DNA of 13,383 nucleotides. It comes from Verrucomicrobiota bacterium. Lineage in GTDB: Bacteria; Verrucomicrobiota; Verrucomicrobiia; Opitutales; Opitutaceae. The stretch lies in assembly GCA_023433275.1 (NCBI GenBank), contig JAEZDN010000105.1:1-13383 (forward strand), given 5' to 3'. Position 1 is the stretch's first letter. Every line of letters begins with the position of its first letter. Positions 92 through 12,448 of this stretch are shown one piece after another. The notes under the pieces were generated by a model. The model searched no databases and was not told the origin of the DNA. It worked only from the letters and a program-made list of their open reading frames with translations. Made by a program: the position numbers and the translations under genes.

Positions 92-1558
92 TCACTTCAG
101 CGCGCCGGCTCCACCGCCGCCGCCGGCCGGCGGGACCTCCTTCGCCAGGGCGATCTCTCCCTGACGGGAATAGTCGATCGCTTCCGCCAGGATGCGCGCG
201 GCTTCCTGCGGGGCGTGGAAACCCATCGAATTTTCGGCGGCGACGAAATCCAGTCGCCACTGGGCCTTGCGATGGAGGTCGCGGGCGGCCTTGAGCTGCT
301 CGTCGGTGGCGCCGGCCTTCTGCGCCGCGCCGATGGCGTGGATGAGCGCGACGGTCGCCTCCTCCGCGCGGGTGAGGAGCGCGGCATTCCGATTCTGCAT
401 GGTGAGCGCGCGCGCCATGATTTCCTTTTCCGGAATGCGGTGGCAGGTCTGGCAGGATTCGGCGACGTTCAACAGCGGGGAACGCACATGATGGTTGCTG
501 ACCTTGATGGCGCCCTCGCGCACGTAGGGCATGTGGCAGTCGGCGCAGGAAACGCCGCTGCGGGCGTGGATGCCCTGGCTCCACATCTCAAACTCGGGAT
601 GCTGCGCCTTCAGCATCTTCGCGCCACTCTCGGTGTGGGTCCAGTCGACGTGGCCGGTCTCGTTATAGTAGGCCTCCATCTGCTCGACCTTGAGGCCGTT
701 GTCCCACGGGTAGTTCACGAGCTTGTTCTTGCCCTCGAAGTTGTATTCGACGTGGCACTGCGCGCAGACCAGGGATCGCATCTCCTGGCGGGTGGCGAGC
801 AGGTTGGGCTCGTAGCTACCCTGGCGGCCGTCACGACGCCAGCGCTCGATGCTCGGGAGATGCGGCGTGGCCTCCTTGGACTCGGCCAGGGCCCTGATGC
901 CGTTGATGAATGCCGGGCGGCTCACGCGCAGGTTCATCGTCTCGGCGTCGTGGCAGTCTATGCATGACACCGGATGTGTCACCTTCTGGCGGGCCTCGGC
1001 AAACGGCAGCGGACTGATCACTTCAAAACCCTTTTGGATCTGCGCCTCGCGATGCTCACGCCCGCCGGGGATGCCGGCCGCAATGCCCGCCTCGATATAG
1101 GTGGGCAGCACCGAGGAATGGCAGTGCAGGCAGGCACCCGGCTGGTTGAAGCGGGTGACGCGTTCGGTCTCATCCTGGTCAGTGAGCATGTAGGCGTGGC
1201 CGCGCTCCTCGCGGTAATCGACGCCGAAGGGATAGCCCGCAAAGAGTGTACGGTAGAGGGGAAACTCATCGAGCCGCTGGAAGGCCTCGCTGCCGCCGTG
1301 GTTCGTGCGCTCGGTGTCCACGGTGCGCTTGTAGCTGTCGTATTGCCGCGGGTAGTTCTTTCCCCACAAGGCGGGATCCGTGGTGTTCTCGTCCACGTCC
1401 ACGACCCGGAAGACGTGCTGGGTCGCCTCGGCCTTTCGCGCCACGATGTTCTGATAGAGCATCAGGATCAGGAACGTGGCGCCGGCGGTGCCGGCGAGGA
1501 TCGCAATGAACGCCCAGGTGGCGAGGCCGTGCTGGCGGGAGGCGGAGGAGGTTTTCAT
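92..1558 (-). CDS. nrfA: Pentahaem cytochrome c nitrite reductase NrfA (ammonia-forming), CXXCH active-site variant
   Basis: 488 aa with an N-terminal signal/anchor helix. Five haem c motifs: CLHCH, CIDCH, CAQCH, CADCH, CQTCH. Long collinear resemblance to E. coli NrfA as I recall it (ERGHAY, CAQCHVEYNFEGKNK, KAQHPEFE, CADCHMP), so the catalytic Arg/Tyr/His and the Ca-site residues appear retained. Lies directly downstream of nrfH. Confidence 0.93.
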   Translation of the reverse strand: MKTSSASRQHGLATWAFIAILAGTAGATFLILMLYQNIVARKAEATQHVFRVVDVDENTTDPALWGKNYPRQYDSYKRTVDTERTNHGGSEAFQRLDEFPLYRTLFAGYPFGVDYREERGHAYMLTDQDETERVTRFNQPGACLHCHSSVLPTYIEAGIAAGIPGGREHREAQIQKGFEVISPLPFAEARQKVTHPVSCIDCHDAETMNLRVSRPAFINGIRALAESKEATPHLPSIERWRRDGRQGSYEPNLLATRQEMRSLVCAQCHVEYNFEGKNKLVNYPWDNGLKVEQMEAYYNETGHVDWTHTESGAKMLKAQHPEFEMWSQGIHARSGVSCADCHMPYVREGAIKVSNHHVRSPLLNVAESCQTCHRIPEKEIMARALTMQNRNAALLTRAEEATVALIHAIGAAQKAGATDEQLKAARDLHRKAQWRLDFVAAENSMGFHAPQEAARILAEAIDYSRQGEIALAKEVPPAGGGGGAGALK

Positions 1559-1772: not shown

Positions 1773-2249
1773 TCACTTCAGCGGACCGTGACCGACCTCG
1801 CGGTGGCAGTGCAGGCAGTCGAGCATCTTCTGCGGGTCGCCGGGGTGCGTGTTGATGCCGTCCACCAGGGCTTGGTGGCAGGTGACGCAGTTCTCCTGGA
1901 GCACCGCGATGTTCTTCTTTCGGATCATGATCGGCTCGTGGAAATCCTGCAGCGTGAAACCCTTCGAGTGCCAGAAGCCGTTCTCGGCCTTGCTGAGATA
2001 TTTCGGGATGAAGCTATGCGGCGTGTGGCAGTCGTTGCAGGTGGCGACCGCATGGTGCGGCCCCTTCTGCCAGCCATCGAACTGCTCGCGCATGATATGA
2101 CAATTCACGCACGCGGTCGGGTCGTTGGAGAAATACGACAGCCCGTGCGCGTAGGTGAAGGTGTAGCTGCCAAGACCCGCGAACAGCCCGGCCGTGGCCG
2201 TGATGGCCACCAACAGGAGCGTGCGCGTGCGCGAGGTGGGGATCTTCAT
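1773..2249 (-). CDS. nrfH: Tetrahaem cytochrome c quinol dehydrogenase NrfH (NapC/NirT family)
   Basis: 158 aa with one N-terminal TM helix. Four CXXCH motifs (CVNCH, CNDCH, CVTCH, CLHCH). Size and position immediately upstream of nrfA are typical of nrfHA operons. Confidence 0.9.
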
Positions 2250-2333: not shown

Positions 2334-2567
2334 TTATTCGCGCCAAAAATTCACCGCCCAAGCCCCGTCGTTACGACGCTCCATCGACGACGCGAACCCC
2401 TCGCTCTTGAGCAATTCAATGAGTGGCGCCGGCAGGAACGGCGCCACGATCGTCACCCCCTCTCCGTCTTCGAGCGCATCCACCCGCGCGCGAATGGCCG
2501 AAAAAGGCTCCTCGCCGCGCGCGAGCACGGCCCGGATGTCGAAGGATTTGAAGCGAATCGGTTTCAT
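2334..2567 (-). CDS. DUF2249-type small protein (TusA/SirA-like fold family often found next to NO/nitrite genes)
   Basis: 77 aa. The pattern FDIR..(G)EEPF..I...V..L..GE.V.IV.PF.P.PL...L...GF......R.DG.W.V.FWR matches my recollection of DUF2249. Not HMM-verified. Confidence 0.6.
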   Translation of the reverse strand: MKPIRFKSFDIRAVLARGEEPFSAIRARVDALEDGEGVTIVAPFLPAPLIELLKSEGFASSMERRNDGAWAVNFWRE

Positions 2568-2641: not shown

Positions 2642-4765
2642 TCACGGGCTCCAGACAAATCCCGCCTCGGGATCAAACGTTAGCACATGTTGGCGACGTT
2701 CCACCGCCGTCCAGGTTCCGGCCCACCGCCGGGAGGGAACGCCGGTGGCAGGCGGTTGCGACCATATCTCCACGCTCGCGCTCTGCGCGCCCGCCGCGAG
2801 GCGCACCCGCAGCTCGCCCACCGCCACCCCGTCGTCGGACAATCCCTTGGCCCGCACCGTGTGCGTCTCCACCCGCCCACCCGCCTCCACGCGCACCACC
2901 ACCGGTTGCCGACCCCGCGCCGCGGGCATCGCCCCGCGCATGTGCACCGGGCGCGTATCGTTGCCCGCGGCCGGCGCGACCGCCGTCGGCTCGAGCCGGT
3001 CGCCATAGGCGCGAAACGTAACAACAAACTCCGGCGCCTCCGGGGCGGGATTGCGAAAAGGTGCGTCGCTCAAACCCACCATGAGCGCCACCCCCACGCC
3101 CGCCACCGCCAGCGCCACCGACCAACCGAGAACGCGGTCACGGCCTGCGCGACTGGCCCGCCCGGGCGCGCCCGCGCCGGCGCGAAGCGAGGATGCCGCT
3201 GCCGCCAGCAAGTGGGGTCGCAACGGATCGAAATCCACATGCGCCACTCGCCGCGGGTCCGCTCGATTGGGGCGGAGCGCGGGCTCACGCGTGCCAGCCA
3301 GGCGCGCGGGCATCCAAATGTTGCCCTCCCGGCCAAAGGCTTCGCTCGAACCGCAACCGACAATGAGCACAGCGGCCGCGCCCTTCGTCATCAACCGCTC
3401 GATGAGCTTCGGCTCGACCCACCCCGCGCAGGGGACGGGCCGCACCGTGTAGCCGGGCAGGCGCCGGGCCCAGGCCACGTGGTCGAACAGCTCCCAGCCC
3501 CCGTCCCCTTGGGCACACACAAAGGCAATCGCGGGAGCCTCCCCGCGGGCCCGGGCGGTGAGAACCAATTCCTCGAGCTCCCGGCCGACGCGCCGCGCAT
3601 CGAACCAGGCCAGGCCAATTCCCTGCGTGTCGCAGGAGCCCGCACAAATGCCACAACCCACGCACCGGTCGGGATCAACCTGCGCTTGCGAGGGAAACGG
3701 CTTCCCGTCGGTTCGCGGCACCATCGTGATCGCGCCGAAGGGACAGTCGTGCGAGCAAAGCGTGCAGGCAAAGCACCTCGACACGTCCACCGCCGCCTGG
3801 AACGTCGCCCGCGGCCGCCGGCGCGCGAGCCACCACGGGATGGTGACCAAAACAATCATGCTCAGGCCGGCTGAGAGCCAGATCCCGGGTCCGCTCAGCC
3901 GCGCCGTGAGTTGCAACGGCCACAGAAACCACCAGTCCATCGAGAGCGCCGCCGGTTTCACGGCGAGTTGGGCGGGAGCCGCATTCGTGGCCGGCCAGAT
4001 GAGCGCCGCGACGATCACCGCGCCGGCCAGCCCGGCGATCAGACGCTTGTCGGGGAGCAGGTTCACCCGGCTCAGGCGCGCCAGATGCAGGGCCAGGCCG
4101 CCGGCGATGGCCAATGGCAGCGCCATGTGCAGGAAGAACACCACGAAAAACAGCAGCGAAGGCACGGTCTCATCCCGATTGAAGAGCGGCAGCATGGGCT
4201 CGCCGAACACGGGCAGCACGTCCACCGCCTTCATCGTGCCCGTGGCGACCAACTGGGCCCGCTCATCCCACACCAGCCAGTAACCGGTCCACCCGATGAA
4301 CCCGATGAGCGCGAGCATGGCGATCCCGCTCGCCCAAGCGAGCCAGCGCGAGCCGGCGAATTTCCGGGCGAACAGCATGCGCGCGGCGTGCATCAGCACG
4401 AGCAGCATGGTGAGGTCGGAGGAATAGCGATGCACGCTCCGCACGATCCCGCCGGGTGATCGCGCCCCCAGCCCTGCGAGCGACGACCACGCGGATTGCA
4501 CGCTGGCGGAATACCAGATGAGCATCAGGACGCCTGAGACCGTGGCCAGGAGCAGCATGGCGTTGGCGGCCGGCCCGAGCTGCGCCAGCGGGTTCACTGG
4601 CCGCGGCCACACGCGCTCGATCACCGTGTCGAGCCGCGCCCAGCCCGCCTCGCCCGCCGCCCACAGCCGCGCCGCCCGCACGGGCGGTGCCGGCGGCTCC
4701 GCCCCAGGCGCCGGACCTCCGCCGATGCTGTCAGCCAGCGCCTCGCAATCGGGCTCCGGATGCAT
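2642..4765 (-). CDS. Multidomain membrane redox protein: dihaem cytochrome b (bc1/b6 N-terminal type) + 2x[4Fe-4S] ferredoxin + MvhD/FlpD-like domain + TM helix + about 140-aa periplasmic domain of unknown function
   Basis: I call the start at ATG 4765 (MHPEPD...), giving 707 aa. The track ORF extends to 5278 only by running out of frame across the upstream SCO gene. Two H-x13-H pairs sit in TM helices (RSVHRYSSDLTMLLVLMHAARM and FFLHMALPLAIAGGLALHLARL), plus a WTGYWLVWDERA motif, as in cytochrome b. Ferredoxin motifs: CFACTLCSHDCP and CVGCGICAGSC. MvhD-like stretch: AFVCAQ...VPCAGWVEPKLIERLMTKGAAAVLIVGCGS...REGN. About 7 TM helices by eye. Confidence 0.75.
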   Translation of the reverse strand: MHPEPDCEALADSIGGGPAPGAEPPAPPVRAARLWAAGEAGWARLDTVIERVWPRPVNPLAQLGPAANAMLLLATVSGVLMLIWYSASVQSAWSSLAGLGARSPGGIVRSVHRYSSDLTMLLVLMHAARMLFARKFAGSRWLAWASGIAMLALIGFIGWTGYWLVWDERAQLVATGTMKAVDVLPVFGEPMLPLFNRDETVPSLLFFVVFFLHMALPLAIAGGLALHLARLSRVNLLPDKRLIAGLAGAVIVAALIWPATNAAPAQLAVKPAALSMDWWFLWPLQLTARLSGPGIWLSAGLSMIVLVTIPWWLARRRPRATFQAAVDVSRCFACTLCSHDCPFGAITMVPRTDGKPFPSQAQVDPDRCVGCGICAGSCDTQGIGLAWFDARRVGRELEELVLTARARGEAPAIAFVCAQGDGGWELFDHVAWARRLPGYTVRPVPCAGWVEPKLIERLMTKGAAAVLIVGCGSSEAFGREGNIWMPARLAGTREPALRPNRADPRRVAHVDFDPLRPHLLAAAASSLRAGAGAPGRASRAGRDRVLGWSVALAVAGVGVALMVGLSDAPFRNPAPEAPEFVVTFRAYGDRLEPTAVAPAAGNDTRPVHMRGAMPAARGRQPVVVRVEAGGRVETHTVRAKGLSDDGVAVGELRVRLAAGAQSASVEIWSQPPATGVPSRRWAGTWTAVERRQHVLTFDPEAGFVWSP

Positions 4766-4883
4766 GTGACCACTCACGCCCCGCCTCCCGCCCTTCCCGG
4801 ACCGGAGGGTTCTCGCGAGGCCGTTCCGCAAGCGGGGCTTCGCCGGGGCGCGGCCCGGCGGTCGACAGCATGCCGCGCGGGAT

Positions 4884-5843
4884 TCATTCGCGCAGGAGGT
4901 GCAGCAGGCCCTCGCGCAGCCAGGCCCGGTGGCGCGGGTCGAGCGTGAAGCGGAAGGCGATGTCGCCCTCGCGATCCAGCAGGAGGAACAGGTTGGCGTG
5001 GTTGAGCACGCCGGTCTCAGGATCACGCGTGACGGAAAACTGGAGACGCTTGAGCAGATCGCGCATCTCGTCGGGGCGCTCACCGTTGACGTAGCGAAAC
5101 TCGGGAAACTCCAGTCCCTGCGCCGTAGCCATGGCGTCCATGATTTCGGTGGTCTCGTATTCCGGGTTGAGCGAGAGCGCGACCACGCGCAGACCCGCGC
5201 GGTCGGCGGCGGGCAATTCGGCGAGCACGGCACGCAACTCCTTGAAGATCTCCGGACAGGCAGTGGAACAGGCCGCATACACGCCCGTCACGAGCACAAC
5301 CTGACCGCGCAGATCGGCGAGCCGGAAGGCCGTGCCCTTCTGGTCCACGAGCGGCTGGTCAGGCACGGCAAGTCGCACCCGGATGCGATCGCCGGGAAAC
5401 GGCGGCAGGACGTCCGCCGCGCGGTCGGCTTGCGCATACGCCACCAGCCCGGCCACCGCGGCCGCAACCGTCGCCACGCCAGCGGCGGCGGCACCGAGGT
5501 GGCGGAGCCATAGCGCCGGCGACCTGAGCTGCCTGAGCGTATCGCGCCAGAGCACGCCGGCCACGAGCACGACCATGACGGGCTCGAGCAACATGATGCT
5601 GACGGCGGCCCACGACATGCCGCCGGTGCGCGGGTCGCCCTGGTAACACCATTGTTGGAAATCCCGCACGAAGCCGCCCAGCGCGCCGTCACCCGTCGGC
5701 CCGAAGATCGTGAGCAGGAGAAACGCCTCGTAGGCCGCGAGCGCCGAACCGAGGAACACCAACAGACCCGGTCCGGTGAAGAAGCGCGTGCCGGCGGACG
5801 TGGCGGCCGGCGGGGCGTCGGGGGCGTGGGCGGGAATGAGCAT
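4884..5843 (-). CDS. SCO1/SenC-family thiol-disulfide/copper chaperone with an N-terminal three-TM membrane domain
   Basis: 319 aa. Thioredoxin-fold core carries CSTAC (CxxxC) and the downstream conserved His (VLNHANLFLLLDREGDI). Three hydrophobic helices fall within the first ~140 aa. ATG at 5843. Confidence 0.75.
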   Translation of the reverse strand: MLIPAHAPDAPPAATSAGTRFFTGPGLLVFLGSALAAYEAFLLLTIFGPTGDGALGGFVRDFQQWCYQGDPRTGGMSWAAVSIMLLEPVMVVLVAGVLWRDTLRQLRSPALWLRHLGAAAAGVATVAAAVAGLVAYAQADRAADVLPPFPGDRIRVRLAVPDQPLVDQKGTAFRLADLRGQVVLVTGVYAACSTACPEIFKELRAVLAELPAADRAGLRVVALSLNPEYETTEIMDAMATAQGLEFPEFRYVNGERPDEMRDLLKRLQFSVTRDPETGVLNHANLFLLLDREGDIAFRFTLDPRHRAWLREGLLHLLRE

Positions 5844-6033: not shown

Positions 6034-7758
6034 TCACCGCACGGGCCACACGTCGGCCAGCGCCTTCCAGTTGGCGAAGTAGTACACCGCGAAGCACGCG
6101 AGGAACACGAAGGTGAGCACGATCGTGCCCTTGGTGGCCGAGTGGTTGTCCGCCAGCGAACCCGCCTTCGTGCCGGCGAGCGCGGGCGGCATGCCCCAGT
6201 CGGCCATCGGGCGGCCATGGTTCTTCTCGCCGAAGAGGAGCGTGCCGACGCAGAGCAGCACGAAGGCGAGCAGGCCGAGGAAGGCCAGCACGCCGCCAAT
6301 GCCCAGCGCACCCAGCCAGAGATGGGCGGCCGGGCCGTAAACGCCCTGCGCATCGATGTCCCAACTGCGGCGCGAAACCCCCATCGAGCCCGCAAAGGAC
6401 ATGCCGAATGACAGCAGCACGATGCCGCCGCCGAAGATCCAGGGCTGGAGGCGTGCGAGCCCGCGCCAGATGAAGTCGCGCTGGAAGATCAGCGGGATGA
6501 CGTAGTAAGCCAGCGCCATGAAGGCCAGCGTGGTGCCGCCGACCACGGTGACGTGGAAGTGTCCCGGGATGCGCAGCGTGTTGTGCGCGATGATGTTGAT
6601 CTGCTGCGTGCCGAGCGTGACGCCCGTGATGCCGCCGAGGAAACCAAAGATGATCACCGAGAGGACGGTGCCCGAGAGAGCCGGGTTGCGCCACGGAAGG
6701 GCCACCACCCAACCGAAGAGACCGCGCGTGTAGCCCTTCTCGCGCATGGCGATCTCGACGCCGGCCGGCACGGTGAAACCGTGGACCATGGACGCGAGCA
6801 CCGCGAGATACATGGCGTAGGAGGTGTTCCAGATCTTCCAGGCCGAGCCGACGGCCGGGTCCACGAGCAGGTGGTGGGCCGACGCGATGTTGATGAAGAG
6901 AATGTAGAGCGCGAAGGCCGTGCGGCAGACCGCCTCGTTGACCGGGCGCGCGCCCAGGATGACGTTCGACAGCAGGTACCAGACCGCGACCATGGCGCAG
7001 ACATTGACCTGTTGCGACTGGTGACCGAGGCCCCACCAGATGATGCGATACCAGATCGGATCGGGCTGGCCGATCCAGCCCATCGAGTAGGCAAACGTCG
7101 GGATCATCACGATCGCGCCGTGCAGGAGGGTGACGACCGCGATGATGGCGGCGGCCAGCGCGCCGAAGGTGACGATCGGCATCGAGCCCTCGTAGGCACG
7201 GTCGCGCTTGGCCACGTAAAGGGTGGCGAAGAAGTTGAAGACGCCCACCAGCGTGCCCACGGCGACGAGGATGATGCCGAGGTAGAAGGCCGGGTGCGCC
7301 AGCAGCGGCAGGTAGGACGTCATCAGCACGTCGGCCTGGCCGGCGATGATGACCCAGTCCACCATCACGGCGCCGACCGCCATGAGGCCGAAGCCCACCC
7401 AGGCCACCTTGCGCGAGAACAGCCGCGCGTTGAGCGGCGTGGTGCAGGCGAAGTAGAGGATCGCGACCTCGAAGAAGAGGATCCAGAAGATGAGCATGTT
7501 GATGCCGTGAAAGGTCAGCACGCGGTAGAACCAGTCCACGGGCAGGAGGTGGACGGTTTGCCAGCGCGTGAGCGCGAGCAGCAGCGCGGCGATGCCGCCG
7601 AGCAGGAGGAAGACGATGCCGACGACGGCGTGCAGCTTGATGAAGCGCTGGGCGTCGAGGCAGACGCCGAGGCCGGTGGTGGCGCAGACGCGCTTCGGCG
7701 TGTCGGGGGCGGCCAGCGAGTGCGGACCGGCGGGCAGGGTGGCGGGGGCAGAGGTCAT
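6034..7758 (-). CDS. Heme-copper oxidase superfamily subunit I, B-family-like architecture, lacking the cross-link tyrosine (candidate nitric oxide reductase catalytic subunit)
   Basis: 574 aa, about 13 TM helices. All six canonical His are present: H84 (TFHG), H246 (WWGLGH), H295/H296 (SAHHLL), H400/H402 (PGHFH). The spacings 84-246-295-400 closely parallel the T. thermophilus ba3 numbering as I recall it (72-233-282-384). The position of the His-linked Tyr (GHPxVY) reads GHQSQQ, i.e. Gln250. Confidence 0.85.
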   Translation of the reverse strand: MTSAPATLPAGPHSLAAPDTPKRVCATTGLGVCLDAQRFIKLHAVVGIVFLLLGGIAALLLALTRWQTVHLLPVDWFYRVLTFHGINMLIFWILFFEVAILYFACTTPLNARLFSRKVAWVGFGLMAVGAVMVDWVIIAGQADVLMTSYLPLLAHPAFYLGIILVAVGTLVGVFNFFATLYVAKRDRAYEGSMPIVTFGALAAAIIAVVTLLHGAIVMIPTFAYSMGWIGQPDPIWYRIIWWGLGHQSQQVNVCAMVAVWYLLSNVILGARPVNEAVCRTAFALYILFINIASAHHLLVDPAVGSAWKIWNTSYAMYLAVLASMVHGFTVPAGVEIAMREKGYTRGLFGWVVALPWRNPALSGTVLSVIIFGFLGGITGVTLGTQQINIIAHNTLRIPGHFHVTVVGGTTLAFMALAYYVIPLIFQRDFIWRGLARLQPWIFGGGIVLLSFGMSFAGSMGVSRRSWDIDAQGVYGPAAHLWLGALGIGGVLAFLGLLAFVLLCVGTLLFGEKNHGRPMADWGMPPALAGTKAGSLADNHSATKGTIVLTFVFLACFAVYYFANWKALADVWPVR

Positions 7759-7781: not shown

Positions 7782-8333
7782 TTATTCGACGAAGATCTTG
7801 CCGGTCATGGCGTGGTGCCCGATGCCGCAGAATTCATTGCAGACGATGGTGAACTCGCCCTTCGAGGTGGGCGTGAGCGTGAGCACGTGGTCGTACCCGG
7901 GTACGGCCTGGAAGTTCATGTTGAGGGGCTGCAGGGAAAAACCGTGCTGCAGGTCGAGGGCGGAGAGATGGATGCGGTAGGTCTCGCCCAAGCGCAGACG
8001 CAGGGCCGGATACCACTGCCACATCCGTCCGATCAGGTAGGCGTCGCCGCCGGGGGGTGGCTCCACGATCGGCAGCTCCGCGGCGAAGGCGTTTCCCGTG
8101 GGATTGACGAACGTGCCGACGCGGTTGGACTCGACGAACTTCTCGGTGCGCGCGAGGAAGTCCGCGGGTGTGACCGCGTAGGCCTCGCCGGAGCTGTTCT
8201 GTTTACCGCGAAAATGCCAGTACGGCATCATCAGCGACATCACGAAGCACCAGAGGATGGCGACGCCGAGCCAGAGCTTTTCATGGCCGGCCGGCGCGTG
8301 GAACCAGGGAGAGGTGAGAGGGCGAAGGCTCAT
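7782..8333 (-). CDS. HCO subunit II with an intact CuA centre (single-TM, ba3-like)
   Basis: 183 aa, one N-terminal TM helix, cupredoxin domain. Complete CuA ligand set: H130 (DLQHGF) and C165-N-E-F-C169-G-I-G-H173-H-A-M176 (CxExCGxxHxxM). Ends 23 nt upstream of subunit I. Confidence 0.88.
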   Translation of the reverse strand: MSLRPLTSPWFHAPAGHEKLWLGVAILWCFVMSLMMPYWHFRGKQNSSGEAYAVTPADFLARTEKFVESNRVGTFVNPTGNAFAAELPIVEPPPGGDAYLIGRMWQWYPALRLRLGETYRIHLSALDLQHGFSLQPLNMNFQAVPGYDHVLTLTPTSKGEFTIVCNEFCGIGHHAMTGKIFVE

Positions 8334-8342
8334 GGCGGCGGT

Positions 8343-8492
8343 TCAGGGCAGTTGCGCCGGCTTGATGAACAGGAGTTCGATCCAGCCCCACGCGGTGTAG
8401 GACAGGAACGGAATGACGACGCCGAGGGCGAGGAGCAGCCAGGGGTTGTCCAGGAGCTTCTGCCAGGGGTGGATCTTGGGTTCGTTTTTCAT
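8343..8492 (-). CDS. 49-aa single-TM protein, positional analogue of ba3 oxidase subunit IIa (not in the supplied ORF track)
   Basis: My translation: MKNEPKIHPWQKLLDNPWLLLALGVVIPFLSYTAWGWIELLFIKPAQLP. Its ATG overlaps the TGA of the upstream gene (ATGA, 8489-8492). Its stop lies 9 nt before the subunit II ATG. One clear hydrophobic helix. The order small-II-I mirrors cbaD-cbaB-cbaA. Confidence 0.6.
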   Translation of the reverse strand: MKNEPKIHPWQKLLDNPWLLLALGVVIPFLSYTAWGWIELLFIKPAQLP

Positions 8493-9904
8493 GGTGCAGG
8501 GTAAGAGGAAGGAGCGCGCCACGTCGCGAGGCCGCGGAGCATGATCGCGAGGAAGAGCAGGCCGCCGATCACGGCCACGAGCCCCCCGAGGCCCATCACG
8601 CCGAGGCCCACGTATTCGCCGAGCGAGCGGACGTGCTGTTCGGCGCCGTATTGCTTGCGGGCCAGGCCGAACGCGCCGGCCAGCGCAAAGCCCAGTCCGA
8701 ACACCGCCTGCCCGCCGCCGAAGAGCGCGAGTTGCCAGCGGATGAGGCGATCGGACGCACCGGCGGCGCGGGGCGAGGCTTCCCGGCTGAAATCATAGGC
8801 CGCCGCCATGAGCGCGAGCGTCACCGCGCCGATCGCACAGTGGTAGTGGCCGGGGACCAGCGTGCTCGATCCGCGGATAAACGCGCCGAGCACGAACCCG
8901 AGCACCGTCAGGAGGGCACTCCCGGCGAAACCGACGAGACGCCAGCGCCCCTCCGCCGCGCGCTCCGCCCAGTGCAGCGCCACGTGCCTGATCCCGAGGC
9001 CGAGCACAATCAGCACCACGGGAAAGATCGTCCAACGCATGAGTTGGGTCGCGATCTCGGAATACGCCGGGCGTGATGTCCCGCCCCACGCCACGACGGG
9101 CATGATCAACTGCGGCAGCACCAGCGCGCAAAGGAGCCAGCGGATCGCGGCCGGCGAGACCACATTGCGACCTGACCAGCGTCGCAACAGCCAGAGCCAG
9201 AGCCCCAGCATGAGCGCGACGTTGCCGACCTGCATGACGTGTCCCCCGCCCCACGCCACCAGCTCGTAATAGCCGATGGCCGGCAGTCCGGGCAGCGTCG
9301 AGCGCCAGGCTGCGGTGAAGGTCGCCAACGCGATCAGGTGCGCCGCCGCCGAGGCGCGCAGGGCGACAAGTGAGTCATCGGACAACCGGGTCGAGGGGAG
9401 CGACGGCACCGCCAGCGCCCCCGCGAGATAAAGCCCGCTGCCGGCGAACCAGGCGACGAGGCCGGCGAGGAACACGGGGTGATCCACCACCGGCACATAG
9501 TTCGCGAGAATCGGCTGCGCGCCCGGCATCACCGCTCCCGCCAGCAGGCCGAGGATGCCAAATCCCGCCAGCGCGATCGAAGCGACGGTGAGGCCGCGCG
9601 GGACCCGCGAGCCCACGGCCCACGCGAGATAAGCCAGCGTGCCCGCCTGGAACCACACGACAATGGCCAGATCCACGTGCACGACGAGCGCGCGCTTGAA
9701 GAACAACGGGTCGGTGAACAACCAGCCCAGGAACGGCAGCCGCCCGACCACGAGCATCAGGGACAACAATCCCGCGAGCACGAGGCTGCCGATGCCGAAG
9801 GCAAACCAGCCTCGCGCCGCGCCGGGAAAATGACTGGAGGCCATCGCCGTCGTCGTCGGGACGAAACGCGGGCGAAGCGCGGGAGCGGCGGCCGGGGTGG
9901 GCAT
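8489..9904 (-). CDS. Divergent HCO subunit I paralogue retaining the haem ligands but lacking the helix-VII His-His CuB ligands
   Basis: 471 aa, about 12 TM helices. Block-wise similarity to the 574-aa subunit I: KRALVVHVDLAIVVW / YRVLTFHGINMLIFW; YVPVVDHPVFLAG / YLPLLAHPAFYLG; WGGGHVMQVGNV / WGLGHQSQQVNV; PGHYH..G.VTLALMAAAY / PGHFH..GGTTLAFMALAYY; FGGG...FAG.FGLARK / FGGG...FAGSMGVSRR. There is no HH dipeptide anywhere in the protein; the aligned position reads V271-A272. Confidence 0.75.
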   Translation of the reverse strand: MPTPAAAPALRPRFVPTTTAMASSHFPGAARGWFAFGIGSLVLAGLLSLMLVVGRLPFLGWLFTDPLFFKRALVVHVDLAIVVWFQAGTLAYLAWAVGSRVPRGLTVASIALAGFGILGLLAGAVMPGAQPILANYVPVVDHPVFLAGLVAWFAGSGLYLAGALAVPSLPSTRLSDDSLVALRASAAAHLIALATFTAAWRSTLPGLPAIGYYELVAWGGGHVMQVGNVALMLGLWLWLLRRWSGRNVVSPAAIRWLLCALVLPQLIMPVVAWGGTSRPAYSEIATQLMRWTIFPVVLIVLGLGIRHVALHWAERAAEGRWRLVGFAGSALLTVLGFVLGAFIRGSSTLVPGHYHCAIGAVTLALMAAAYDFSREASPRAAGASDRLIRWQLALFGGGQAVFGLGFALAGAFGLARKQYGAEQHVRSLGEYVGLGVMGLGGLVAVIGGLLFLAIMLRGLATWRAPSSYPAP

Positions 9905-9939: not shown

Positions 9940-9953
9940 TTGACGCGCATCAA
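9940..9953 (-). promoter_or_regulatory. FNR/CRP-family (Dnr/NnrR-type) box, perfect TTGATgcgcGTCAA when read on the minus strand
   Basis: Plus strand reads TTGACgcgcATCAA, with the gcc flank conserved on the minus strand. It overlaps the azurin stop codon. The centre at 9946.5 is 29.5 nt from a TAAAAA hexamer (9917-9912, minus strand). Predicted TSS is about 9905, adjacent to the ATG at 9904. Confidence 0.65.
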
Positions 9954-10468
9954 GGCTTCGGCGCGACGATCAGTTTGCCCTTCATCAACGCGGCATGGCC
10001 GGGAAATGTGCAGATGAACGGATACTCGCCGGGGGCATCCGGCGCGCTGAACTCGACGGTGTCGCTCTCATTGGGTCCGAGCAGCTTCGTGTGCGCGATG
10101 ATCCTGCCCGCGTCCGCGGGCACGTACTCCGGCGCGCGCGCCGCGGCGGCCTGCGCGAGCGCCAGCACCCCTCCATCGGGCATCGGCACCAGGAGCACCC
10201 AATTGTGTCCCATCGCCTGCTTGGGCATGCGACCAATGTTCTTCAGGGTGACTCGGATCTTCTCGCCGACGTGGGCGCGAATCTCGGTCACATTGAACTT
10301 CATGGTGTCGTCCGCCGTGATCACGACGGCCTTGACGCCGTCGACCGGGGCCGCGGCCGGGGTTGCAGCGACCGGAGCGGTGGCGGGAGCTTCGGATTTT
10401 CCGCAACCGGCGAGCAACAAGGCGGTGCCGGCCACGAGCGGAAGGATGAGGGTGGGCATGGATTTCAT
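9950..10468 (-). CDS. azu: Azurin-type blue copper protein, lipoprotein-anchored
   Basis: Near-collinear with P. aeruginosa azurin as I recall it: MKFN, MGHNWVL, RIIAHTKLLGP..S.TVEF, FICTFPGHAALMKGKL. Type-1 Cu ligands His/Cys/His/Met are all present. Lipobox LLAGC after a signal peptide, followed by an Ala/Pro-rich linker. I prefer the ATG at 10468 (MKSMPTL) over the GTG at 10477. Confidence 0.9.
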   Translation of the reverse strand: MKSMPTLILPLVAGTALLLAGCGKSEAPATAPVAATPAAAPVDGVKAVVITADDTMKFNVTEIRAHVGEKIRVTLKNIGRMPKQAMGHNWVLLVPMPDGGVLALAQAAAARAPEYVPADAGRIIAHTKLLGPNESDTVEFSAPDAPGEYPFICTFPGHAALMKGKLIVAPKP

Positions 10469-10503
10469 CCTCCCCACCCTAGCGAAAGGAACCCTTCGAC
10501 GCC

Positions 10504-10517
10504 TTGATGCGGGTCAA
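10504..10517 (-). promoter_or_regulatory. FNR/CRP-family (Dnr/NnrR-type) box TTGATgcggGTCAA with a -10-like TAGGGT
   Basis: Perfect 10/10 match, with flanks gcc...gc shared with the box at 11601. It overlaps the stop codon of the upstream gene. The centre at 10510.5 is 29.5 nt from TAGGGT (10481-10476, minus strand). Predicted TSS is about 10469, adjacent to the azurin ATG at 10468. Confidence 0.65.
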
Positions 10518-10945
10518 GCTGCCGGCGTTTCCTTGCAGCAGGCCGACTGGCAGACTCCGTCGAGCAGCCGGATCTCGCGGTGGGCGACGCCGCGCATCCG
10601 CTCGCACAATTCCCCGACCTGCGCGACGCGATCCGCCGCGCTCAGCGCGGGATCGGCGACCTGGGCCCAGATGAGCGCCTCGAGCAGCGCTTGCTCCAGC
10701 GTGGCAAAGTACGGGCGCAGCGGGTTGCAATGACACCGCTTCGGCAACGAATCGGGGTTCGCGGCAACCGTCCCATCCGGGGGTTGCGCTGCCAGCACGT
10801 CGTCGAGCGTGTGATCGAACAGGTGGACCAGGATGTCGGGACTCGCCAGCGGCGTGGCCGGTTTCTCCAGGCGTAGCAGGGCCTCCCACCGCGCGCGGAT
10901 CTCTGGCCGCCGCGGTTCGAGGAGTGGGCGCAGGGAACTGCTCAT
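10514..10945 (-). CDS. Hypothetical cytoplasmic protein with CHC and CxxxCC motifs
   Basis: 143 aa, no signal peptide or TM helix. Cysteines sit in KRCHCNP and GVCQSACC. Helical, Arg/Leu-rich N-terminus (RPEIRARWEALLRLE). 27 nt downstream of the preceding gene. I do not confidently recognise a family. Confidence 0.5.
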   Translation of the reverse strand: MSSSLRPLLEPRRPEIRARWEALLRLEKPATPLASPDILVHLFDHTLDDVLAAQPPDGTVAANPDSLPKRCHCNPLRPYFATLEQALLEALIWAQVADPALSAADRVAQVGELCERMRGVAHREIRLLDGVCQSACCKETPAA

Positions 10946-10972
10946 GGCATGAGGGAAGCGCGGGTGCGGCGC

Positions 10973-11566
10973 TCAGTGTTGGTGGCCGAATTCATGGGTG
11001 GCAGGACGAAGCGCCGACGCATGCAGGGCTTCGTAATAGTGGATGTATTCGACGTAGGCGGCGACATAGCCCCGCCCGGCCTCGACGTTGTGGTCAGCGT
11101 GGGCCCGGGCCTCGCGCGCCCGGTCAAACCGCTGGGTCAAACCGGCGGCGATGCGTTGCTGCAGCTCCCGCACCAGTTCGTCCGCGCGACCGGTTTCCAG
11201 GGATTGGTCGGCCGCAGCGATGGCCGGATCGATCGCGCCGGCCGGCTTGAGTCCGGTGAAGGCCACCCCCTCGCCAGCGCGGTGGATGCGCACGAGCGTC
11301 TCGAAGAAGTAACGCTCGGCCAGTTCGGCCGCGGTCGGCGACAGACCTCGCACCTCGAGGGTCTGCGCGAAAGCGGTGCGGATCGCGGTCTCGTCCTCCG
11401 CACGCACCCACCTGAGCACGCGCGCGACGTCACCCTCCGCGATCGCCTGCCGGGCGGCTTCTATGACCGGGCCGTCGAGGCTGTCGCAGTGGGCACGCGC
11501 AAGGGGAACGAGGGCCAGCGTCGCCAGAAAGAGGCCAGCCAGCAGGGATCGGGTCGTCTGGTTCAT
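10973..11566 (-). CDS. Secreted protein with mature N-terminus HCDSLDGPV and a His-rich C-terminus (DUF6448-like, recalled from memory)
   Basis: Start called at ATG 11566 (MNQTTRSLLAGLFLATLALVPLARA|HCDSLDGPVI), giving 197 aa. Conserved-looking core YFFETLVRIHRAGEGV.FTGLKP. C-terminus HASALRPATHEFGHQH. The track start at 11614 is a TTG lying inside the regulatory box. Confidence 0.6.
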   Translation of the reverse strand: MNQTTRSLLAGLFLATLALVPLARAHCDSLDGPVIEAARQAIAEGDVARVLRWVRAEDETAIRTAFAQTLEVRGLSPTAAELAERYFFETLVRIHRAGEGVAFTGLKPAGAIDPAIAAADQSLETGRADELVRELQQRIAAGLTQRFDRAREARAHADHNVEAGRGYVAAYVEYIHYYEALHASALRPATHEFGHQH

Positions 11567-11662: not shown

Positions 11663-12448
11663 TTACCGCCCGCTGGTCACGACGGCTTGCGCCGCCTCGT
11701 CGAGGCCGCCGCGCAGGCCGTTGCGCTGGTGGACGATCTCGCCCTCGGGGTTGAGAATGGTGATGAGGTTGGAGTGCGCGAACATGCCGTCGGCCTCCTG
11801 CTTGAACTTCACGCCCAGGAGCGCGGCGAGTTCGCGCACGGCATCGTCATCACCGTGCAACAGGGTCCATTGGTCATCGAGCTGGCGTTCCGCCCGGAAT
11901 TTCGCGAGCGCGGCCGGCGTGTCGCGCGCGACGTCGAACGTCACCAGCACGAGCGCGGCGCGCGTGCGGATCTCCGCGGGCAGTTTCGCCTGGATGGCAT
12001 GCATGTCGGTCAGCAACAGCGGGCACGCGTAGCCGCAGGAGGCGAAGAACATCGTCAGCACCACCGGCCGGCCGCGCAGGGAGCTGAGAGCGAAGGGCCG
12101 GCCGCGGTCATCGGTGAAACCGACGTCGAGTTGATAGAGCGATTCGGCGCTGAAATCCCCGCTCTTCAATGCGGGATTCTCGAGCTCGGCGCAGCAGGCG
12201 TCCGGCTTTTTGTCGGCGGTTTCCTCGACCGCGCAGCAGGCGGCGGGCTTGGGCGCGTCCCCCTGGGCGCAGCAAGCGGCCGTCCCGGACTTGTCCGCGC
12301 AGCACGCTGCCTGGTCCGTTTTACCGTCGGAGCAGCCGCAGGCCGACTGCGGCTTGGCGTCCGGCGTCGCGCAGCAGGCGGCTGGCTTTTCATGCGCCAT
12401 CAGGCCGGCGGACAGGAGGAGGGAAAGCAGGGCGAGACTCGTTTTCAT
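11663..12448 (-). CDS. SCO1/SenC-family copper chaperone with a secreted N-terminal (A)CCA-repeat cysteine-rich tail
   Basis: 261 aa with a signal peptide (MKTSLALLSLLLSAGLMA|HEK). 12 Cys in about 65 residues: five ACCA units plus one CGC. SCO core carries FFASCGYACP (CxxxC) and the conserved His (MFAHSNLITILNPEGEI). Its ATG overlaps the stop of the upstream FGE-like gene (ATGA). Confidence 0.85.
   Translation of the reverse strand: MKTSLALLSLLLSAGLMAHEKPAACCATPDAKPQSACGCSDGKTDQAACCADKSGTAACCAQGDAPKPAACCAVEETADKKPDACCAELENPALKSGDFSAESLYQLDVGFTDDRGRPFALSSLRGRPVVLTMFFASCGYACPLLLTDMHAIQAKLPAEIRTRAALVLVTFDVARDTPAALAKFRAERQLDDQWTLLHGDDDAVRELAALLGVKFKQEADGMFAHSNLITILNPEGEIVHQRNGLRGGLDEAAQAVVTSGR
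12185..12391 (-). repeat. Degenerate in-frame tandem repeat encoding the (A)CCA cysteine pairs
   Basis: The plus strand shows gcgcagca(g/a/c)g... recurring at about 12188, 12231, 12266, 12298 and 12369, with a related gagcagccgcagg at about 12330. Spacing is roughly 33-43 nt. Confidence 0.7.

Follow-up and report, generated by a model that had tools for sequence, protein, structure and literature searches.

The minus strand of the window (the whole stretch of 13,383 nucleotides analysed) codes at positions 2642–4765 for one real and widely conserved membrane polypeptide, as was confirmed by its homologues. The N-terminal part of the protein is a dihaem cytochrome b of b6 type, after which come E and F helices like those of subunit IV, a pair of [4Fe-4S] motifs, a domain of MvhD fold, the seventh transmembrane helix (TM7) and, last, a beta-sandwich in the periplasm. 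The family is a near-universal companion of eNOR-type operons in several phyla, and because of this near-constant co-encoding with an NO-reductase-type enzyme the fusion probably serves as the dedicated connection of this enzyme to the quinone pool.

The open reading frame is continuous, ends at position 2642 (stop codon 2642–2644) and gives 707 amino acids when read from the ATG at 4765. An in-frame GTG at 4777, located 6 nt after GGGAGG (4789–4784), gives 711 amino acids and regains the N-terminus MSxHxHPDVDCE shared by the homologues. The true start is, judged from these features, probably this GTG, the gene then covering positions 2642–4777. All features described below lie on the same minus strand.

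The description of the gene as a single-polypeptide fusion in the earlier note was borne out. Besides one protein with 100% identity (P0001), the searches found more than 120 full-length homologues of the same length from many samples at 59–82% identity, and about 100 further full-length cluster representatives with identities down to roughly 30%. Altogether 363 clusters (50% identity level) were matched at E ≤ 1e-30, the full-length homologues numbering hundreds in at least six phyla. In a large sister clade TM7 and the beta-domain are encoded by a separate, adjacent and overlapping gene downstream (54 split against 12 fused C-terminal modules in the metagenome set), which could suggest that a frameshift or misassembly had joined separate genes in the window. 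Against this stand the independent full-length homologues, the uninterrupted matches in 80 genome loci and the conserved linkers of the continuous frame, and such an artefact is next to impossible. Orthologues are thus not always split: fused ones are many, the split form is that of the sister clade, and for the clade of the window the fused orthologues rule the artefact out.

Domain architecture

The N-terminal part is a cytochrome b6-type four-helix bundle (helices A–D; residues 45–235, positions 4061–4633), assigned by Pfam and by histidine conservation. The family Cytochrome_B (PF00033) matched residues 52–232 with E 9e-20 (71.8 bits, cut-off 27.2), and cytochrome b6 6rqf_I was matched in the PDB with E 7e-17. 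The predicted haem ligands, His112/His126 and His213/His227, form two H-x13-H pairs, and all four were 100% conserved both in 96 full-length family representatives and in 119 Chloroflexota relatives. Also the W.GY.L.W motif was read directly (WTGYWLVW, residues 159–166), so that the cytochrome b module proposed in the earlier note stands with both ligand pairs and the motif. A cysteine for haem cn, as in the b6-type CxGG, was not present, the sole cysteine before residue 331 being Cys7.

In the following segment (residues 236–318, positions 3812–4060) two helices, E and F, resemble those of subunit IV, the ef loop lying on the p side. When a profile of residues 233–322 was searched against the whole PDB, only b6f subunit IV and cytochrome b were matched, the best match being 2e74_B (E 1.1e-3, residues 44–114); the Pfam scan of the window protein gave no match to PF00032. 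The ef loop carries the motif M-D277-W-W-F (xDWW; xDW[WF] in the family), the probable counterpart of the PEWY-type motif P[E/D]W[Y/F] with the proline absent. Asp277 was conserved in 97% of the 96 family representatives and in 100% of the 119 Chloroflexota relatives. The claim that neither a Rieske protein nor subunit IV is nearby held for the former, as no Rieske box was found in the window or in 160 related loci, these loci alone being covered, and a positive control in L087 was detected. For subunit IV it was probably wrong, because the subunit-IV-like helices sit inside the fusion polypeptide.

A 2x[4Fe-4S] ferredoxin domain is inserted in the F–G loop (residues 322–386, positions 3608–3802). 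Fer4 families matched residues 330–380, Fer4 and Fer4_7 above their cut-offs, and the two-motif CxxCxxCxxxCP pattern of bacterial 2x[4Fe-4S] ferredoxin domains is present, with cysteine motifs CFACTLCSHDCP at residues 331–342 and CVGCGICAGSC at 368–378. All eight Fer4 cysteines were invariant in the 96 family representatives, and the ferredoxin module claimed earlier can be upheld. The domain is placed on the n side because of the sequence RRRPR after helix F and the orientation given by cytochrome b homology.

Next comes a domain of MvhD/FlpD fold (residues 395–535, positions 3161–3583), recognised by PF02662, Foldseek and cysteine patterns. PF02662 matched residues 438–513 with 30 bits (cut-off, GA, 22.3), and profile matches were obtained to VhuD (E 3.7e-4) and to the C-terminus of HdrA2 (E 1.4e-11). 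AlphaFold2 modelled an alpha/beta domain in residues 316–545, for which the top four Foldseek matches in the PDB were all MvhD chains (8rvu_F, 5odc_D, 5odh_D and 7bkb_F; probability 1.0, target-normalised TM 0.56–0.64). While fold and family of the earlier assignment thus agree, the conserved cysteines do so incompletely. Three of the four family-conserved ones are present (Cys417, Cys446 and Cys471), and position 476, which is Cys in canonical MvhD and in 119 of 119 Chloroflexota relatives, is Ala. In roughly half of the close relatives a Cys follows two residues after this position, and distant family members retain the canonical motif GCxxGDCHYxxGN. Compared with MvhD, the N-terminal CxxC has no second Cys either, and by sequence comparison the window protein does not have the complete MvhD cysteine set for a [2Fe-2S] cluster. 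No HdrA or hydrogenase genes were found in the window or in related loci.

TM7 (residues 545–567, positions 3065–3133) is detected by hydropathy and takes the position of helix G of cytochrome b and subunit IV. It is followed by the periplasmic beta-sandwich (residues 568–707, positions 2645–3064). The AlphaFold2 model of residues 540–707 (pLDDT 91.6) consists of one transmembrane helix, at model residues 2–27, and an eight-strand beta-sandwich. Hydropathy gave altogether seven hydrophobic helices, and loops rich in K/R put the FeS part on the cytoplasmic side; hydropathy, loop charges and AlphaFold2 all agree with the topology predicted before, in which the FeS part is inside and the C-terminal domain outside. 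Pfam likewise supported all three families named in the earlier note, cytochrome b, Fer4 and FlpD/MvhD.

The C-terminal domain had been described as Cys-free, beta-rich and without an assignable family, and this was also the outcome here. There is no cysteine after residue 471, and relatives were found neither in Pfam (31 members scanned), NCBIfam (domain of the window) nor by PDB profile search; Foldseek gave nothing significant against the PDB. Similarities to the metal-binding Ig-like proteins FetP, Tp34 and HftA were weak (probability 0.2–0.5, TM below 0.2). A long loop of the sandwich bears H608-M609-R610; the clades that have this loop share the pattern [H/N]-M-[R/K], while the clade with fused cytochrome c has it deleted. 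A universal metal or haem site at the His–Met pair appeared promising in the first 37 sequences, but was dropped because most of the split clade has Asn in place of His608 and a flanking Cys pair is missing from the clade of the window. No recognisable site for a periplasmic redox cofactor was present in the window protein (no Cys, no CxxCH).

Gene neighbourhood

Neighbours in the related loci were identified by phmmer with the window's own proteins, and crude ORF calling gave spurious antisense ORFs in this high-GC DNA. The conserved order is HCO-like paralogue, 49-aa subunit, CuA subunit II, subunit I, SCO and then the fusion gene. The paralogue (471 aa, positions 8489–9904) has a weak PF00115 match, was syntenic in 49 of 51 loci and retains the haem-ligand residues His76/353/355 and His222, without an HH pair. 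The 49-aa single-TM subunit (positions 8343–8492) is a called gene in L001–L003 and conserved across loci. Subunit II (PF00116, positions 7782–8333) has conserved CuA ligands, the motif CxExCGxxHxxM being present in 69 of 69 loci. Subunit I (PF00115, positions 6034–7758) has the sequence GHQSQQ, in which Gln (H+4) replaces the cross-linked Tyr, a change regarded as the eNOR signature (PMC8756737). The same Gln was found in 71 of the 74 genome and 42 of the 45 metagenome subunit I ORFs scored; three ORFs with Tyr belong to the Chloroflexota loci L087–L089. With this subunit I and a CuA subunit II co-encoded, the operon is of eNOR type and the enzyme a predicted NO reductase.

The SCO/SenC copper chaperone (PF02630, positions 4884–5843) adjoins the fusion gene upstream; it has an N-terminal polytopic extension and the conserved residues C192xxxC196 and H282. 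Farther upstream, an azurin-like lipoprotein (PF00127; TIGR02695, 94.8 bits; lipobox LLAGC; positions 9950–10477) is a candidate periplasmic electron carrier, its gene being found upstream in only about five loci and outside the universal block.

Subunits II and I were upstream on the same strand in 50 of the 51 genome loci having enough upstream DNA, and all five upstream genes in 48. The same gene set came up in 80 loci from metagenomes, with the C-terminal module mostly on a gene of its own. The genome loci represent Verrucomicrobiota, Myxococcota, Planctomycetota, Rhodothermales and Calditrichota, and also in divergent or convergent arrangements the fusion gene adjoins the HCO genes. The link to the NOR-like genes is much stronger than could be seen from the window, as in the earlier note, and the fusion is the sole quinone-type protein of the conserved block. 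The fusion gene is not the orf1 of the sNOR cluster norSY-senC-orf1 of ammonia oxidisers: orf1 (cbaD) is a six-TM protein of about 190 aa, and sNOR has Asn at the Tyr position where the window subunit I has Gln.

In the Chloroflexota relatives a CxxCH cytochrome c domain is present at the C-terminus in 119 of 119 proteins. The gene order is subunit II, subunit I, fusion and monohaem cytochrome c, SCO is not adjacent, and the partners are ba3-type O2 reductases instead of eNOR, which makes the association one with B-family enzymes as a whole. The fused cytochrome c at the periplasmic end points to electron exchange also on the p side. A reading in which electrons flow towards the cytoplasm alone is incomplete in view of this large clade.

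Some variants were seen once each. In one homologue, P0136, the N-terminus is extended by a fused SCO domain. The split genes of L085 run in the same direction as CtaA, with 2-oxoacid:ferredoxin oxidoreductase genes beside the cluster. In L072 a 487-aa cytb–Fer4 variant without periplasmic domain or HCO adjoins a P450 gene.

Proposed function and alternatives

Judged from sequence and gene context, quinol coupling is the most likely role of the fusion. Our specific proposal, held tentatively and with somewhat less than even confidence, is that it serves a B-family haem-copper enzyme, in this case the eNOR-type NO reductase, as a quinone module of bc type that works without Rieske and is encoded in the same operon. 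Quinol would be oxidised at a p-side (Qo-type) pocket with release of protons into the periplasm. Electrons for NO reduction would exit periplasmically. The C-terminal domain would hand them to a carrier, either soluble or lipid-anchored (in the window azurin, in Chloroflexota the fused cytochrome c), which would pass them to CuA. The low-potential electron would cross the membrane through haems bp and bn into the FeS/MvhD chain, which would stand in place of a Qi site and might end at a cytoplasmic acceptor or at a quinone, or act as a second electron entry.

The points for this quinone module are the core of b6 plus subunit-IV type, the conserved Asp277, the FeS/MvhD insertion, the co-encoding with CuA, eNOR and SCO genes, the cytochrome c fused in Chloroflexota, the lack of a Rieske box in the 160 loci and the fact that the block has no other quinone-type protein. 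Against it, no periplasmic cofactor that could serve as a high-potential outlet is recognisable in the clade of the window, and His608 is mostly Asn in the split clade. The adjacency to SCO, an assembly factor, also counts against the quinone module, as do the ba3-type partners in Chloroflexota and the MvhD domain of the window, short of one Cys that is invariant in other clades. Rhodothermus eNOR, when purified, worked with artificial donors as an enzyme of two subunits (PMC11214002), which means that catalysis in vitro does not require the fusion.

If the high potential of NO (O2 in the ba3-linked Chloroflexota) draws one quinol electron out periplasmically while the other passes via bp and bn to low-potential [4Fe-4S]/[2Fe-2S] centres and a cytoplasmic carrier such as ferredoxin, the protein would be a Rieske-less, quinol-based electron-bifurcating enzyme in a single polypeptide, the terminal reductase paying for low-potential reductant. 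This we consider unlikely. The predicted cofactors all lie on the path from the Q site to the cytoplasm, and a simple redox loop fits them as well as the quinone module does: both electrons of quinol oxidised on the p side would pass via bp and bn to the cytoplasmic FeS centres, in a NarI–NarH geometry, and would serve, at the membrane or in the cytoplasm, maturation of the oxidase instead of NO reduction. They might reduce Cu(II), the reaction of CcoG, or be delivered to enzymes that modify haem, for instance haem A synthase. Such assembly support, a possible if rather doubtful reading, agrees with the place of the fusion gene after SCO in eNOR-type operons and with the variants P0136, L085 and L072, each however a single case. 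It also has a precedent in CcoG, a protein with two [4Fe-4S] clusters, a periplasmic Ig-like C-terminus and an unknown electron donor, encoded among cbb3 assembly genes (PMC7558416). It leaves no role for the fused cytochrome c of Chloroflexota, where the gene lies between subunit I and cytochrome c and SCO is elsewhere, and no FixG/CcoG family was among the Pfam matches (E ≤ 1) or the best 25 of 86 NCBIfam matches.

The direction of flow might also be the reverse. A ferredoxin or flavodoxin would then dock on the MvhD-like or ferredoxin domain, and electrons would run from FeS via bn and bp to a periplasmic carrier or p-side quinone, a ferredoxin-driven supply to the terminal reductase with a layout like that of cytochrome b561/DOMON or NOX-type transmembrane reductases. 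This linear n-to-p chain employs all cofactors, including the cytochrome c fused in Chloroflexota; MvhD and HdrA2-type ferredoxin modules normally carry low-potential electrons, and fermentative lineages are among the hosts, with the 2-oxoacid:ferredoxin oxidoreductase genes beside the L085 cluster. It seems improbable all the same, as it leaves Asp277 (97–100% conserved) and the subunit-IV-like Q-site region without a role, wastes energy by exporting electrons down the membrane potential, and has no donor gene conserved in the loci.

Enzymes of the eNOR type are credited with much of the NO reduction and N2O formation in the environment (PMC11214002), and in the literature searched we found neither a description of their connection to the quinone pool nor a published function for the fusion family. 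As an electron supplier the fusion would be a new kind of 'complex III'. As a bifurcating enzyme it would touch the long-standing question whether Q-site chemistry can yield low-potential reductant, and as an assembly factor it would name a physiological electron source for copper or haem maturation. The sequences suggest in any case that a bc/b6-type cytochrome b can exist without Rieske, its low-potential haem chain wired to cytoplasmic FeS centres.

Comparison with known systems

The fusion shares with cytochrome b6 plus subunit IV of b6f, and with bc1 cytochrome b, helices A–D with two bis-His sites and WxGYxLxWD, similar E/F helices whose ef loop bears an acidic-aromatic motif at what would be the p-side quinol site, and seven helices in the same order and orientation. 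It differs from them in that the 160 loci are without Rieske and the conserved block without a cytochrome c1/f gene, in the missing haem cn Cys and PEWY proline, in the FeS insertion of about 230 residues in the F–G loop, and in its C-terminal periplasmic beta-sandwich. MvhD of Mvh/Hdr and the HdrA2 C-terminus are similar in fold and FlpD match, HdrA2 also in its order of Fer4 followed by MvhD, whereas the fusion has no HdrA or hydrogenase partner, lacks the second Cys of the CxxC and in the window also the fourth Cys, and holds the domain on a cytochrome of the membrane.

NarI–NarH, HdrE–HdrD, DsrM–DsrK and QmoC likewise connect a transmembrane b cytochrome with two haems to FeS clusters in the cytoplasm, the last combining b cytochrome and FeS clusters in one polypeptide. 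The resemblance to DsrMK, HdrDE and NarI pointed out before holds for this geometry but not for family: the haem protein here is of the bc/b6 family and has an extra periplasmic domain (cytochrome c in one clade), and no NarI-type or CCG-domain family was among the Pfam matches or the best 25 of 86 NCBIfam matches. CcoG/FixG is likewise polytopic, carries a pair of [4Fe-4S] clusters on the cytoplasmic side and an Ig-like domain at its periplasmic C-terminus, and has a place in an HCO operon beside assembly genes (PMC7558416). It has neither b haems nor an MvhD domain, its Cu-binding Cys motifs are missing from the fusion, and homology was rejected, since no FixG/CcoG family was among the matches listed for the window protein or for 31 C-terminal domains.

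According to PMC5600118 and PMC12954380, the bc-type complex of the anammox or 'subfamily G' Rieske/cytochrome b group, which has NAD(P)/FeS subunits, has been proposed to feed cytoplasmic FeS/flavin proteins. Those complexes keep Rieske and multihaem c and have a separate FeS/flavin partner, unlike the fusion, which has neither Rieske nor a flavin domain. The fusion family probably belongs to 'subfamily H' of Dibrova et al. 2017. CbcBA was rejected as a Rieske-less bc1-type precedent, CbcB being a b cytochrome of hydrogenase/thiosulfate-reductase type. The Chloroflexota locus L087 also carries a Rieske/cytochrome b cluster of the anammox or 'subfamily G' type.

Domain composition of the fusion protein

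Translation of the window gave a minus-strand open reading frame that ends at 2642 and encodes 707 amino acids if started at the ATG at 4765, from which residues are numbered here. A GTG in the same frame (4777), 6 nt 3' of a GGGAGG sequence, would add MSGH to the N-terminus, in line with the consensus MSxHxHPDVDCE of close homologues; because of this spacing and the restored consensus, GTG 4777 is the likelier start. The Pfam search found all three domains proposed in the earlier note above curated cut-offs: PF00033 (Cytochrome_B) at residues 52–232 (E 9e-20), several Fer4 families at residues 330–380, and PF02662 (FlpD/MvhD) at residues 438–513 (30 bits, cut-off 22.3). Also the residues named in that note were all present, including His112/126, His213/227, WTGYWLVW, two CxxCxxCxxxC(P) motifs and the MvhD-like VPCAGWVEP ... 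VGCG ... REGN. The NCBIfam search gave no equivalog, the best matches being the b-type cytochrome ExtP, cytochrome b6 and the ferredoxin-MvhD C-terminus of HdrA2, and the top PDB sequence matches were solved cytochromes b6 (6rqf_I, E 7e-17). Hydropathy predicted seven helices. The cytochrome b homology and the K/R-rich loops (FARKFAGSR, SRVNLLPDKR, ARRRPR, RASRAGRDR) place the FeS part on the cytoplasmic side and the last 140 residues on the periplasmic side, which agrees with the topology suggested earlier.

A profile of residues 233–322, built from 30 family members and searched against every PDB sequence, matched only b6f subunit IV (2e74_B, E 1.1e-3, residues 44–114) and cytochrome b. By this match the fusion protein also includes subunit-IV-like helices E and F with the ef loop of the p side, and the supposed absence of subunit IV has to be corrected, as these helices lie inside the polypeptide itself. 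The FeS/MvhD block is then an insertion in the cytoplasmic F–G loop, and TM7 corresponds in position to helix G. The motif M-D277-W-W-F occupies the position of P-E-W-Y, and Asp277 is kept in 97% of the 96 representatives and in all 119 Chloroflexota relatives. Judged by sequence, the core of the protein is of the b6/subunit-IV type, in which both haem sites are present and the acidic motif of the p side is conserved; to this core are joined a cytoplasmic chain of two [4Fe-4S] sites and an MvhD-fold domain, and a periplasmic domain.

The AF2 model of residues 316–545 had pLDDT values of 85–96 across the MvhD-like part, and its top four PDB matches in Foldseek were all MvhD chains (probability 1.0). 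The canonical MvhD Cys pattern is CxxC ... PCxG ... GCxxGDCH, of which the window protein has Cys417, Cys446 and Cys471; its residue 476 is Ala. All 119 Chloroflexota relatives have the fourth Cys, and distant family members carry it in the canonical GCxxGDCHYREGN, while among close relatives it is displaced by two residues in about half and missing in the rest, the window protein included. Sequence match and fold thus speak for the proposed MvhD-like domain, but the Cys set is incomplete (three of four) and there is no MvhD-type partner; as modelled, the domain has an MvhD fold, and its cluster binding is putative.

The periplasmic domain was modelled by AF2 as a TM helix and an eight-strand beta-sandwich (pLDDT 91.6). 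It had no Pfam, NCBIfam or PDB sequence match and no significant structural match in the PDB by Foldseek (best E 0.015, TM <0.4), in accordance with the earlier description of a beta-rich domain that could not be assigned. Its long loop bears H608-M609-R610; the wider family version is [H/N]-M-[R/K], so that His is not a universal ligand. Gly629 (window 2878–2880) occupies a family Asp position, with Asp in 64/74 sequences of the split clade, in which TM7 and the beta-domain form a separate gene. Ala476 (window 3337–3339) stands where other clades carry the fourth MvhD Cys. The deviations at these two residues may be natural variation.

Distribution and informative relatives

The word-indexed search detected at least 120 full-length proteins of about 705–712 aa with 59–82% identity from many independent samples, belonging, where named, to Opitutae/Verrucomicrobia. 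The exhaustive search of 50%-identity representatives gave 3208 matches, 363 of them with E<=1e-30, and many matched over the full length at identities as low as about 30%. When one genome per species was scanned, there were at least 600 matches, the best 80 of which came from Verrucomicrobiota, Myxococcota, Planctomycetota, Rhodothermales and Calditrichota. In the split clade, abundant in metagenomes, cytochrome b-Fer4-MvhD (~500–545 aa) and TM7/beta-domain (~175 aa) are encoded by two neighbouring genes that often overlap (54 split and 12 fused in the metagenome set), which shows the C-terminal module to be separable yet always co-encoded. Orthologues are not always split, and the many full-length homologues indicate that the fusion is real; that an artefact explains it is extremely improbable.

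Two family representatives have a C-terminal cytochrome c domain. A query with one of them gave at least 120 clusters of 750–846 aa from Chloroflexota (Anaerolineales, Caldilineales), and all 119 relatives examined had the full set of four MvhD Cys and a CxxCH no more than 140 residues from the C-terminus, and had lost the [H/N]MR loop. By the CxxCH motif, the periplasmic end is a redox protein in one large clade. The Chloroflexota operons are ordered CoxIIa-like peptide, subunit II, subunit I, fusion, monohaem cytochrome c, with SCO not adjacent. Their subunit I (GHPLVY) is a Tyr-bearing ba3-type oxygen reductase, so that the family accompanies B-family haem-copper enzymes at large. Three single cases point the opposite way. 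The homologue P0136 has an SCO domain fused N-terminally, directly onto cytochrome b; the split genes of locus L085 are co-directional with CtaA and beside 2-oxoacid:ferredoxin oxidoreductase genes; and locus L072 encodes a 487-aa cytochrome b-Fer4 variant without the periplasmic domain (9980–11443 (+)), convergent with a cytochrome P450 gene (11490–12791 (-)) and with no haem-copper genes nearby at that locus.

One Chloroflexota contig with a fusion relative (L087) also carries a separate cluster (13439–18745) of a GltD-like NAD(P)/FeS flavoprotein, a Fer4 protein, a short cytochrome b, a 254-aa protein, Rieske and a multihaem cytochrome c, resembling the anammox-type bc complexes discussed in PMC5600118.

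Linkage to haem-copper enzymes and possible electron routes

On the source contig the gene order is NirK-cytochrome c, FGE-sulfatase-like, SCO, DUF6448, unknown, azurin-like, haem-copper (HCO)-like (471 aa), 49 aa, subunit II, subunit I, SCO, fusion, DUF2249, NrfH and NrfA. The flanks differ among genomes, and the block from the HCO-like gene to the fusion is constant. Among 51 genome loci with >5.2 kb upstream, subunits II and I (window 7782–8333 and 6034–7758, both (-)) were upstream on the same strand in 50, SCO and the HCO-like gene were each present in 49, and all five upstream genes in 48. The split clade (80 metagenome loci) had the same gene set, often with the HCO-like gene downstream. 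Subunit I has the motif GH[QPS]SQQ[VI]N, with Gln four residues past the CuB His, at the cross-linked Tyr position, in 71 genome and 42 metagenome loci; this Gln is diagnostic of the eNOR family (PMC8756737). sNOR and bNOR have Asn there. Subunit II had the complete CuA motif in 69/69 loci. The linkage to a CuA-containing eNOR-type enzyme is obligate, and the fusion, dedicated to eNOR/ba3-type enzymes, is inferred to be the operon's own quinone module. The accessible eNOR literature, PMC8756737 included, makes no mention of the family, which may fall within subfamily H of Dibrova et al. 2017.

No Rieske box was found by pattern search in the window or 160 loci, as the earlier note had stated for the neighbourhood; the same pattern recovers the Rieske gene of the unrelated L087 cluster. 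By sequence the fusion belongs to the cytochrome b/b6 family, but differs from bc/b6f complexes in having neither a Rieske partner nor the haem-cn feature. The suggested likeness to DsrMK/HdrDE/NarI-type modules stands for the presumed manner of working and not for the family: compared with NarI/HdrE/DsrM/QmoC, the haem protein is of a different family and there is no CCG domain. The fusion is a bc-type protein that does without Rieske and has an FeS branch on the cytoplasmic side; it is widespread and uncharacterised. The observation itself is confirmed, and its earlier functional interpretation partly supported.

The functional statements draw on sequence, predicted fold and synteny. Under the preferred reading, tentative and as a joint statement somewhat short of even probability, quinol would be oxidised in the p-side pocket, the electrons that reduce NO would exit on the periplasmic side to a carrier (azurin in the window, the fused cytochrome c in Chloroflexota) and then CuA, and the b haems would pass the low-potential electron on to the FeS chain and not to a Qi site. 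The chief difficulty for this reading is that no periplasmic cofactor can be recognised in the window protein; furthermore, purified Rhodothermus eNOR is an active two-subunit enzyme with artificial donors (PMC11214002). A NarI/NarH-like redox loop that supplies a reaction in the cytoplasm or in maturation would find an analogy in CcoG, which has two [4Fe-4S] clusters, a periplasmic Ig-like domain and an unknown electron donor (PMC7558416), and is rather unlikely. A ferredoxin-driven reverse conduit to the periplasm is improbable, and Rieske-less quinol-based electron bifurcation to low-potential FeS centres is doubtful to the same degree. The remaining probability is reserved for mechanisms other than the preferred reading, the redox loop, the reverse conduit and an artefact.

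Other genes of the island

The 471-aa subunit I paralogue (window 8489–9904 (-)), the first gene of the conserved block, keeps the haem ligands H76, H353 and H355 and one CuB-type His (H222) and has no 'HH' pair (55 loci); this is probably a membrane protein with two haems and no binuclear centre. The SCO adjoining the fusion (4884–5843 (-)) carries, besides its canonical copper site (C192xxxC196/H282), an unusual polytopic extension of ~150 residues at the N-terminus, in which Cys66 is conserved. In the second SCO (11663–12448 (-)), the N-terminal region is rich in Cys, and its six 'CC' pairs (AACCA-type repeats) suggest additional copper binding. The azurin-like cupredoxin with the lipoprotein signal LLAGC (9950–10477 (-)) lies just upstream of the HCO block, and a homologue was found in only about five related loci.

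In at least ten Opitutae-type loci, a DUF2249 gene (77 aa; window 2334–2567 (-)) comes after the fusion in the same orientation, and none was found beside the fusion in Myxococcota, Rhodothermales or Calditrichota loci. NrfA (92–1558 (-)) has five CxxCH motifs and lacks the CxxCK motif of the active-site haem; NrfH (1773–2249 (-)) has four CxxCH motifs. Further upstream on the source contig lie the NirK-cytochrome c fusion and the FGE-sulfatase-like gene, which we take to be nirV-like. With NirK-cytochrome c and NrfA/NrfH on one contig, the island combines NO-forming and ammonifying nitrite reduction.
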